This document shows positions 24,187 through 27,092 of a DNA stretch of 64,000 bases, in pieces. Where the stretch lies: NCBI RefSeq assembly GCF_054482595.1, contig NZ_CM137008.1. The stretch is one strand, 5' to 3'. The position numbers and the translations under genes are program-made. Position 1 is the stretch's first letter. Every line of letters begins with the position of its first letter. The notes under the pieces were generated by a model. The model saw nothing but the letters and a program-made list of their open reading frames with translations. It searched no databases and was not told the origin of the DNA.

Positions 24187-26874
24187 TTACCAGTATAAAC
24201 TGACCCCTGTTGTTCCCTGCCAGGTCTTTTCGGATCGTTCACTAAGACCGTTTTGATAATCAACCTTGATATAATAATTTGTATAATCATTCAGCTTTAC
24301 GGTCACGCCGCCGCTTATTTTTGCAGCAGAACCATTATAGGATGTAAGTAATGAATCCTGGTATCCCGTACTGCCTACGGTAACATTATTTCTGTCTCTG
24401 GCGGTCAGTTGATTATTCAGCTCTGCATCAAGGAAGGGGGACCACTGGACCCCGGATATCGTCATAGTATTCCAGTACAAACGAGCTCCAGCGGAGGCGG
24501 TTAACTGATTATCCAGATCGTTATTAACGTTTAAATCATCATAACGATAGTCATCTAATTTAACTTTCTGCCAGGATACAGAAATTCGTGGCACCAGTGT
24601 CAGCGCCTCATTTAGTACTCGCGGATAGCCCGCTTCAAAAGCCAGAATCTGCCCACGACCATGAATATCAGGTTTACGTGTACTGTTATTCGATTCTACC
24701 TGTCCAGAATACCGGGCTAGTTGTAAAGTGGTGTTTGTGTACCAGCCCTGGGTTGCTGTATAACGCCAGTATAAACCTGTAGCGTAAGTATTGAGCTGGT
24801 AGCTTCCAAGCTGGGCATTCGAGGTGTAAATGGTTTTGCCCGATACATTAGCATTACTGTCGAGATAACCCACATAAACACCCAGTTTATGACTGCTGTC
24901 TTCATCAGCAGGCCATAAATCAGCCCCAATTTGGATACCTTTTACGTGGCCATTCCATGCCGCATTTGTGGCTCCGTCACCTTGATTTTCCTGTTGTCCG
25001 TAAAGGGTACGTACCCAAATCCCTTGGCCATTTTGGGCCATTCCACTGGGTTCCGGAACGAGTCTGTCAGCAAACTGTGGTATTAGCGCCAGTCCAGCCT
25101 GACGGGTAATATCTCCCAATGCGCTGCTGACGACAGCATCTGCACGCATCGCGCCACGCTGTAGAAAAGAATCATATTGGTAACTTTGCCCGGCAAACAC
25201 ACCATAATCATACAAACCGGTAGTCAGAATGGCATCCTGAGCACTACTATTTTTGATTACCGCATTGGTATCATTACCACTGATACTACCAATGGTTAGG
25301 GAGTGTCCGTTAACATCCAGTATACTGCCTGTTGTAGTGTCATACGTTTTTGAAAAAACGATATGGTCAGTATAATTCAAAGCATTATCCGCGTTTATAT
25401 TGACACTGGCATTTCCTTCTAGTTTCAATGTTGTATTATATAACGAGTTTTCATGATTCAGATTTATCAGTGAATTCCCTTTAAAACGCTGCTCGCCACC
25501 ATTAATGGCATCTGCAGTATTAATGTTTAATGTCGAATTACCATCAAATAATAAATTTCCGCCATCCACACCATGCTGTGCTGAAATGTTCATGACAGCA
25601 TCGTCTTTAAATGTAGTAGATGTGCCACCAGTAACTGCCTGGCTGATATTGGCGTTAAATATAGCATTGTTACTAAATATTTGTTTGCTGTTACCGGAAA
25701 TCGCCCCTTTACTGTTGCCATTCAGGATGCTGTTTCCACTAAAATTCTGTCTGCCTCCAGACAGGGTATCTTCGCCATTGGCATTTAATATACTATTATC
25801 GTTAAAATTTTGTATCCCCCCGGTAATTGTTGATTTACCGTTAGCATTAAATACTGCATTATCCTGTAATTTTATTTGTCCTCCAATAATAGCCTGATCT
25901 GCTTCTGTATTCAGGACTGAGCTTTTTGCCAGGATCTGATATCCACCACTTATACCTTGACTGGCATTGACATTTAATGTTGCATCGTTAAATGTTTGAT
26001 TGCCACCACTGAGTGCCGTGGCTGCATTCACATTCATTGTCGTACCAGATTGAAATATCTGTTTATTCGTATTATTCGTTTCTCCCGCGATAGCATTAGC
26101 GGTATCCGCATTTAATACTGAACTCCCAGTGAACAGTAACGTGCCTCCAGTGACACTACCGTTTCCAGTCACATTGACCTCGCTGGAATCCTGAATGTTT
26201 AACTGCCCACCAGACATTCCCCCCGTGGCATTGATATTAACCGTTGACGTTCCTTTAACACTGCCAACTTTACCAGAGGACATCGTATTTTTACTAAAGG
26301 CATCGGATGCGTTTAAATTAAGTGTCGCATCTGTGAATGTCAGTCCCGTGCTGTTAAATACGCCATCGGCTGCATTGATGTTTAGTGTTGTTCCAGCATT
26401 GAATATCTGACTACCGCCATTAATTGCTTTTTCAGTATTGGCATTGACTACGCCATTACTACCAGCGAGAGCAGTTAACTTGGCATTGTTTATACCAGAA
26501 CTGGCATTGATATCGATTTCAACTTTCCCTGGTGTACTTCCGCCTCTTAGCGTGTATGTACCGCCATTTAATCCTGACTCGGCGTTGACTTTTACATGCG
26601 TATTCTCTCTGAACTCATAGGTACCTTTGTTATTATTAAAGGCCTGGCTGGCAGAAACAGTAAGATCTGTATTCCCTAAAAAATAAACAGGAGATTTATC
26701 GATATATCCAGCAGTATTGGCATCTATTGTTTTATTAGTGCAATAAGATGATCCCGAACAATCAGAAGAAATAGCCGCATTCACTGAGCTGGAAATAAAA
26801 GATAATGAAAACACCGCCAATAGCAGGGAAGAACCATATCCAGCAGAGCGATGACAGAAAATTATTTTATCCAT
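24187..26874 (-). CDS. Type Va autotransporter (adhesin-like passenger, C-terminal beta-barrel)
   Basis: 895 aa; signal peptide; repetitive Asn/Gly/Thr-rich passenger; beta-domain ending ...GVSLYW. Confidence 0.8.
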   Translation of the reverse strand: MDKIIFCHRSAGYGSSLLLAVFSLSFISSSVNAAISSDCSGSSYCTNKTIDANTAGYIDKSPVYFLGNTDLTVSASQAFNNNKGTYEFRENTHVKVNAESGLNGGTYTLRGGSTPGKVEIDINASSGINNAKLTALAGSNGVVNANTEKAINGGSQIFNAGTTLNINAADGVFNSTGLTFTDATLNLNASDAFSKNTMSSGKVGSVKGTSTVNINATGGMSGGQLNIQDSSEVNVTGNGSVTGGTLLFTGSSVLNADTANAIAGETNNTNKQIFQSGTTMNVNAATALSGGNQTFNDATLNVNASQGISGGYQILAKSSVLNTEADQAIIGGQIKLQDNAVFNANGKSTITGGIQNFNDNSILNANGEDTLSGGRQNFSGNSILNGNSKGAISGNSKQIFSNNAIFNANISQAVTGGTSTTFKDDAVMNISAQHGVDGGNLLFDGNSTLNINTADAINGGEQRFKGNSLINLNHENSLYNTTLKLEGNASVNINADNALNYTDHIVFSKTYDTTTGSILDVNGHSLTIGSISGNDTNAVIKNSSAQDAILTTGLYDYGVFAGQSYQYDSFLQRGAMRADAVVSSALGDITRQAGLALIPQFADRLVPEPSGMAQNGQGIWVRTLYGQQENQGDGATNAAWNGHVKGIQIGADLWPADEDSSHKLGVYVGYLDSNANVSGKTIYTSNAQLGSYQLNTYATGLYWRYTATQGWYTNTTLQLARYSGQVESNNSTRKPDIHGRGQILAFEAGYPRVLNEALTLVPRISVSWQKVKLDDYRYDDLNVNNDLDNQLTASAGARLYWNTMTISGVQWSPFLDAELNNQLTARDRNNVTVGSTGYQDSLLTSYNGSAAKISGGVTVKLNDYTNYYIKVDYQNGLSERSEKTWQGTTGVSLYW

Positions 26875-27092
26875 GGCTGCATCCTATTTATTTTTAGATA
26901 ATTCAAAAGAATAACTACTGCCGCGCGTAATGCACCTGCGCCAAACGCCAGTTCTCTGATGGCGATATCCTGTATCAGGTCGTCAGGTATCTCAACTTTA
27001 AGCGGTTGGGGTTTTTCCCGGTTGAATAACTCAGGCCAGAGTTCCACAAGACGATTAATACGCTTACGGTTTTTACGCTGGCGTTTTGTCAT
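26862..27092 (-). pseudogene. ProQ/FinO-like N-terminal fragment fused to the autotransporter leader region
   Basis: 76 aa ORF; first ~45 aa resemble the FinO/ProQ N-terminus (...LVELWPELFN...PLKVEIPDDL...); remainder is the autotransporter ribosome-binding region read in another frame. Confidence 0.3.

Follow-up and report, generated by a model that had tools for sequence, protein, structure and literature searches.

The 76-residue open reading frame (ORF) that overlaps the start of an autotransporter gene in the window, i.e. the whole stretch of 64,000 nucleotides of DNA analysed here, is very probably the product of an illegitimate, microhomology-mediated recombination in a compound genomic island at leuX of E. 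coli, which left a scar with a dead ProQ/FinO remnant and no functional fusion. The recombination junction is located at 26915–26925, where an 11-bp microhomology, CGCGGCAGTAG in the minus-strand reading, is present in both parental genes, as delimited by a three-way alignment and by the limits of the blastn matches. In the three-way alignment, the window agrees with the ProQ/FinO parent as far as CGCGGCAGTAG and with the parental gene for a PL8 polysaccharide lyase from CGCGGCAGTAG on, with the switch falling inside the shared 11-mer. By local blastn, positions 20453–26925 are 99.9% identical to islands carrying the PL8 gene, and positions 26915–36724 match the dnd island of strain 357900 at 99.94% identity. 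With both parents identifiable and the switch in identity confined to 11 bp, the site has the make-up of a microhomology-mediated illegitimate recombination junction, and since the chance of an 11-bp match at a random joint is about 4^-11, the microhomology marks the exchange point. When the homologous autotransporter loci were compared, as the preliminary description had suggested, many E. coli genomes were found to match the query only as far as 26925, and in these intact clusters the PL8 lyase gene continues upstream of the autotransporter gene. On the other side, a query of 26905–27724 gave near-full matches in 123 genomes, 109 of which stop matching at 26915, with the ProQ/FinO gene running on to its normal stop. 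The breakpoint therefore lies in the 3' end of the PL8 gene and not, as had been described, at the autotransporter gene itself; 13 codons and the stop codon of the lyase gene survive between the FinO remnant and the autotransporter gene.

Over the 3.8 kb around the junction, the window shows 100% identity with the E. coli EC11 chromosome and with 13 other complete E. coli genomes. Among 5426 complete E. coli genomes, the junction is present in 14 (from poultry, humans, dog, mink, sheep and river water) and is identical in all of them, which suggests that one event lies behind it. As a mark of a single E. coli sub-lineage, which it also dates, the scar could serve as a lineage marker. An assembly artefact or a chimeric contig has a practically negligible probability: apart from the abundance of IS elements in the region, nothing specific speaks for it, and the same junction recurs in these 14 complete genomes, which are independent of each other and differ in host and laboratory, with the junction ORF on 305 contigs. 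In the RefSeq annotation, the window lies in the leuX (tRNA-Leu) variable region of EC11, which is flanked by the fim/nan genes and by yjgR-lptFG, and island modules and IS fragments are joined there in a mosaic. EC11 also carries, 37 kb to the left, a second ProQ/FinO copy that retains its full backbone; this copy represents another allele (about 90% identical), is frameshifted and has its 5' end cut by an IS3-family element. The leuX region therefore keeps the remnants of at least two islands.

In the proposed course of events, the first parent was a dnd/dpt (DNA phosphorothioation) island, with a backbone ProQ/FinO gene that is divergent from dndB and that was already split by a frameshift into ORFs of 57 and 114 residues, and the second parent was a sugar-utilization cluster ending in the gene for the 895-residue autotransporter, 9 nt after the PL8 gene. 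Through the exchange at the 11-bp CGCGGCAGTAG, the ProQ/FinO gene would have lost its 3' half, and with it would have gone anything in between and the utilization cluster except for the last 42 bp of the PL8 gene. The simplest reading is that the DNA between the two 11-bp copies was deleted in a compound island. No genome was found with the pre-deletion arrangement, i.e. the dnd island and a complete PL8 cluster in one array. Strain 357900, with the same dnd island, was considered as a precursor and carries BREX, not the PL8 cluster, beyond the island backbone, and in AH62 and SLK172 the backbone genes beside the PL8 cluster are oriented opposite to what a one-step deletion would need. Because no precursor was found and because of this orientation in AH62 and SLK172, the junction may instead have arisen by end-joining during the acquisition of incoming DNA, or after prior rearrangements, rather than by a single internal deletion. 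Strain ECCRA-119, a candidate close relative with the intact arrangement, was ruled out, as a different island is present there. The illegitimate exchange resembles microhomology-mediated recombination and deletion in other tRNA-associated islands in that both parents match with >99.9% identity, the switch falls within 11 bp, no IS end or duplication is present and pseudogene fragments lie on both sides; nothing is unusual here, the only gap being the immediate precursor arrangement, which was not found. The scar is a clean example of the reshuffling of tRNA-island cargo at short chance homologies, with a host-interaction gene left without its native regulatory context.

The 6.5-kb segment shared with the PL8 islands (20453–26925; 99.9% identity) contains an IS3 fragment, a LysR fragment, an IS3-family element, a transposase fragment, a small lipoprotein-like ORF, the autotransporter gene and the PL8 tail. 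The left end of the segment (20453) falls within an IS3-family fragment, and the segment also has an IS3-family element inside it, so that IS-mediated transposition of an autotransporter module into the ProQ/FinO gene has to be considered. This origin is very unlikely, however, because the segment ends on the right in a plain 11-bp microhomology that lies in PL8 coding sequence, and neither an IS or transposon end nor a target-site duplication was found at the joint (26915–26925). The 3' half of the ProQ/FinO allele seen at the junction, which a transposition would be expected to leave on the far side of the segment, is absent together with its backbone from the window and from the 10 kb to the left of it, and the other ProQ/FinO copy of EC11 is a different allele with its own backbone. 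The rest of the PL8 cluster is likewise absent from the window and these 10 kb, and with both reciprocal halves missing there, a simple insertion into the ProQ/FinO gene is excluded.

The 5' part of the ProQ/FinO-family gene that remains on the minus strand (26915–27262) consists of a 57-residue ORF, a frameshift and a FinO-domain ORF that is cut after codon 58. RefSeq already carries a pseudogene call at 26916–27262 ('ProQ/FINO family protein; frameshifted; incomplete; missing C-terminus'), so that the truncated, frameshifted status of the gene is part of the existing annotation and does not represent a new gene arrangement. The ProQ/FinO gene of strain 357900, which carries the same dnd island, agrees with the window at every base up to 26915 (100% DNA identity) and stays in frame to its normal stop. 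The unbroken allele of this gene encodes 159 residues, starting with MVTLTINRKPQG, from an ATG equivalent to position 27262 of the window. Compared with this 159-residue allele, the dnd-island allele has 35 nt more in its variable N-terminal region, and the resulting frameshift yields the 57-residue ORF (27089–27262) and a separate ORF starting with MTKRQRKNRK, which is 114 residues long in strain 357900 and 76 residues long in the window; no frame runs unbroken from the ancestral start codon. The 76-residue ORF (26862–27092, minus strand) is chimeric, with residues 1–58 derived from the ProQ/FinO gene and residues 59–76 from the junction. After ...GALRAAV, the ProQ/FinO frame in the window reads VILLNYLKINRMQPWIK and then stops, whereas the intact protein reads ...GALRAAVASYVRSPRYYRALMAGGARYDLKGQPCGEV... 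past the same point. In other strains, the ProQ/FinO gene is found at the edge of a conserved island backbone (a YagK/YfjJ or Gp2-like gene, a hypothetical gene, an HTH regulator, a 549-bp hypothetical gene and ProQ/FinO), and the cargo on its 5' side varies with the strain, being dnd/dpt, cdiBA, resistance genes, or H-NS with a dGTPase.

The descent of the 76-residue ORF from a ProQ/FinO-family gene, as proposed in the preliminary description, is borne out by this 100% DNA identity and by the profile search that had been named as the check on it, which found significant similarity both to Pfam PF04352 (E = 3.1e-6 and 27.5 bits over residues 8–59, the gathering score being 27) and to the NCBIfam FinO family (E = 5e-6). 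The similarity had been described as a FinO/ProQ-like N-terminus; the likeness is real, and what it marks is the start of the FinO domain, as the protein begins 45 residues earlier in the unbroken alleles. The match covers positions 4–54 of the 109 in the PF04352 profile, while a complete ProQ/FinO domain would span about 105 of them, and the 114-residue and 159-residue products match positions 4–107 with E = 1e-22. In a PDB sequence search, these two intact island homologues gave E values of 4e-11 to 4e-7 with the ProQ, FinO, NMB1681 and RocC domains, the alignment of the intact homologue to PDB entry 5nb9 covering residues 40–154. The intact island homologues thus match the whole domain of the ProQ/FinO chaperones (the N-terminal domain of E. 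coli ProQ, 5nb9; F-plasmid FinO, 1dvo; Legionella RocC, 7rgu; Neisseria NMB1681, 3mw6), whereas of this domain the ORF in the window retains only the first half, to which the PLKV/PLKI motif region belongs; it lacks profile positions 55–109, is frameshifted upstream and has a junction-derived end. Unlike F-plasmid-type FinO, which is encoded on a conjugative plasmid, the copy in the window belongs to a chromosomal island backbone. An Rfam scan of 23600–28000 in E-value mode gave only two meaningless sub-threshold matches, with none in the intergenic region, and no FinP/traJ-like or other RNA partner was found.

The exact 76-residue sequence is deposited at NCBI as a 'ProQ/FINO family protein' on 305 contigs, and this name, together with a Pfam score just over the gathering score, would be compatible with a genuine miniature ProQ/FinO-type RNA-binding protein. 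It is nevertheless highly improbable that such a protein is encoded here, as the intact relatives and the solved ProQ, FinO and RocC domains align to about profile position 107, the 18 C-terminal residues come from the junction, the gene is frameshifted relative to the 159-residue form and current RefSeq annotation treats it as a pseudogene. With profile positions 55–109 lost and the frame reading out of phase into foreign sequence, the ProQ/FinO remnant is, as it stands, a pseudogene. The 76-residue 'ProQ/FINO family protein' of the databases is an artefact of a pseudogene junction and does not belong in a count of small FinO-domain proteins; beyond this correction of the annotation, the scar matters little.

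The 76-residue ORF does run through the ribosome-binding site and the start codon of the autotransporter gene, as had been noted, and overlaps the autotransporter gene, from its ATG (26874) on, by 13 nt in a different frame. The ProQ/FinO frame is ended by a TAA codon at 26864–26862, 13 nt into the autotransporter gene, and its last 18 residues (59–76) come from DNA read out of frame, namely the 3' end of the PL8 gene, the spacer and the 13 nt with which the autotransporter gene begins. The codon starts of the FinO frame fall at positions equal to 2 mod 3, those of the PL8 remnant and the autotransporter gene at 0 mod 3, and no continuous frame leads from the ProQ/FinO gene into the downstream gene. 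A functional gene fusion, either as a ProQ/FinO–autotransporter chimera or as a translationally fused regulatory leader for the adhesin, would find a basis in the physical overlap of 13 nt at the autotransporter start. Such a fusion has only a minute probability, since the frames differ and the FinO frame stops, the C-terminal end of the ORF is the out-of-frame reading of PL8 and autotransporter DNA, the autotransporter keeps its own ATG, Shine–Dalgarno sequence and N-terminus, and the same RefSeq autotransporter protein is encoded in loci without any FinO gene. At the sequence level, a protein fusion is refuted. The earlier statement that an adhesin module had been joined onto a truncated FinO gene was right as to the truncation and the recombination; what was formed is a scar in the DNA and not a fused gene or protein, the frames being different and the autotransporter product being WP_001696166.1 in junction-bearing and intact contexts alike.

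The remnant of the PL8 polysaccharide-lyase gene (26884–26925, minus strand; 42 bp) comprises its last 13 codons, encoding RGSSYSFELSKNK, and a TAG stop codon. The retained tail RGSSYSFELSKNK and the stop are the same as in the intact gene and are followed, in a single frame, by DAA and then by MDK of the autotransporter. In the intact loci, a 799-residue PL8 gene (Lyase_8_N, Lyase_8 and Lyase_8_C) is followed by a 9-nt spacer and the autotransporter gene, and the native cluster in other E. coli has the order DeoR regulator, PTS IIB/IIC/IID/IIA, GH88/105, DUF2264, hypothetical gene and PL8, with the autotransporter gene last; its PTS is of the mannose type. The native translation-initiation region of the autotransporter gene (26875–26885, minus strand) consists of AGGA (26885–26882) overlapping the PL8 stop, a 7-nt spacer and the ATG, and has the same sequence in the PL8-containing loci in the alignment. 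The autotransporter ORF, its Shine–Dalgarno sequence and its start codon are untouched by the junction.

The autotransporter gene itself (24187–26874, minus strand) is intact and encodes a classical (type Va) autotransporter of 895 residues, with a C-terminal β-barrel translocator domain at residues 619–871 that matches positions 1–254 of the 255 in the PF03797 profile (E = 2.4e-30); TIGR01414 is also matched (E = 1.2e-17). By eye, the N-terminus shows a hydrophobic stretch, LLLAVFSLSFISSSVNA, followed by A, which is a candidate for a Sec signal peptide, and degenerate repeats of about 20 residues are visible in the passenger; a tandem-repeat search of 24100–27800 gave nothing. The C-terminal β-domain and the long repeat-rich passenger are shared with the AIDA-I-type autotransporter adhesins of E. 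coli such as UpaB, an adhesin that binds glycosaminoglycans (PMC6488583). The protein encoded in the window differs from the AIDA-I-type adhesins in that neither a Pfam family nor a solved structure is matched by the sequence of its passenger; a PDB sequence search with the autotransporter gave nothing at E ≤ 0.001. The protein is left without a published name; AatB was considered, and the reviews give no sequence detail. The native place of the gene, directly after PL8 in a PTS/GH88 cluster, suggests that the autotransporter is linked to host glycans. In the window, the autotransporter gene is now detached from the PL8 cluster.

In its native place, the autotransporter gene is probably co-transcribed with PL8, as the spacer is only 9 nt long and a consensus-match scan of the coding strand over the final 600 bp of PL8 in the intact locus found no σ70-like site. 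The same type of scan found no σ70-like site in the 51 bp of native upstream sequence retained in the window, and in a consensus scan nothing terminator-like was found between the ProQ/FinO pseudogene and the autotransporter ATG. The sole minus-strand match of the promoter scan in the junction region, at 27562–27534, agrees with the consensus at 9 of 12 positions, which is no better than expected from shuffled sequence. From these weak consensus scans, we infer that the autotransporter gene no longer has the promoter of its native operon or the DeoR-linked context, and that its transcription, if any, would start in the ProQ/FinO promoter region and read through, or depend on a weak fortuitous promoter. 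A tentative extension of this, which we regard as possible and rather unlikely, is promoter capture: the deletion would have uncoupled the autotransporter gene from the DeoR/PTS/PL8 operon and placed it under the ProQ/FinO promoter of the island backbone, with translation of the 76-residue ORF aiding initiation. Ribosomes ending this ORF 10 nt beyond the autotransporter ATG could help to open the start site. If promoter capture took place, the adhesin of this lineage would be expressed together with island-backbone genes and not in response to host glycan.

On the other side of the pseudogene lies dndB (27725–28810, plus strand), the first gene of dndBCDE and the right-hand neighbour of the junction. 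The preliminary description had taken about 630 bp (27093–27724) to be non-coding and shared with the divergent dndB promoter. This has to be revised, as 27093–27262 is the frameshifted 5' part of the ProQ/FinO gene and the true intergenic region between the pseudogene and dndB is 27263–27724 (462 bp), of which 27263–27413 is conserved upstream of ProQ/FinO genes in many islands and 27414–27724 is specific to the dnd island. No evidence was found for a promoter region in common with the autotransporter gene, and the recognizable dndB operators lie within about 100 bp beside dndB. The only exact copy of the published DndB operator TACGN10CGTA in the 64-kb window is located at 27674–27691, 34 bp before the dndB ATG, and a copy with one mismatch is located at 27631–27648. 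The two motifs fit the two-box promoter described for Salmonella (PMC4507180), and the dndB control region, as predicted from them, is the roughly 100 bp beside dndB and need not be shared with the opposite strand.

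A gene of the ProQ/FinO family marks the boundary between backbone and cargo in a family of Escherichia coli islands, as seen at window positions 27263-27413 and in the comparison loci L003, L004, L005, L010 and L012. The island backbone consists of a YfjJ/Gp2-like gene, an HTH regulator, a 549-bp hypothetical gene and the ProQ/FinO gene itself, and the approximately 150 bp 5' of the latter (27263-27413 in the window) are kept across the islands. The cargo 5' of ProQ/FinO depends on the strain and comprises dnd/dpt, cdiBA, sul2/aph, H-NS with a dGTPase, or an IS3 element followed by 37 kb. 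In strain EC11 (locus L012), a second ProQ/FinO pseudogene lies about 10 kb to the left of the window start (L012 27968-28313); it is a different allele with about 90% identity, is also frameshifted, and has its 5' end cut by an IS3-family element. As this second pseudogene is adjoined by a complete island backbone, the leuX region of EC11 therefore contains the remnants of at least two islands.

The native cluster of the autotransporter (L002 8188-18926 and L009 20188-32429, from other E. coli genomes) encodes a DeoR regulator, mannose-type PTS components IIB, IIC, IID and IIA, a GH88/105 protein, a DUF2264 protein, a hypothetical protein, a PL8 lyase and the autotransporter, and looks like a glycosaminoglycan-type utilisation locus with a surface protein at its end. 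The cluster is located near tRNA-Phe in strain AH62 and at a different chromosomal position, beside gsp/yghD genes, in strain SLK172. Autotransporters of Salmonella enterica subsp. diarizonae and houtenae fall within the same 90%-identity cluster. Directly 3' of the window autotransporter, a small ORF on the minus strand (24008-24157; 47 amino acids in RefSeq, WP_001767846.1) accompanies it in every context seen; its product has a lipoprotein-like N-terminus (LNAC) and no Pfam match. In the IS-fragment region 3' of the autotransporter, a partial Rfam match to the Yersinia sRNA Ysr202 (23917-23979, minus strand; E = 2.6e-4), which scores 25.6 bits where the gathering threshold is 315, is almost certainly without meaning. 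Fragments of IS1 and IS91/IS3 flank a second, larger autotransporter gene of 3498 bp (about 7595-11092, minus strand), whose reported counterpart in length is presumably aatA, an adhesin gene of APEC.

The published DndB operator motif TACGN10CGTA occurs as a single exact copy in the 64-kb window, 34 bp 5' of dndB, and a second box with one mismatch is found 26 bp farther 5'. This pair (27631-27691) agrees with the dndBCDE promoter described for Salmonella Cerro 87, which likewise has two boxes (PMC4507180). The region at approximately 33100-42600 contains, between dndE and dptH, a full dptFGH restriction module together with genes for a DGQHR-domain protein, a short DndB-like protein and an AgrB-family protein. 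A fragment of a degraded integrase lies between this module on one side and, on the other, both the leuX-proximal integrase and a pair of phosphoethanolamine-transferase and OMP genes.
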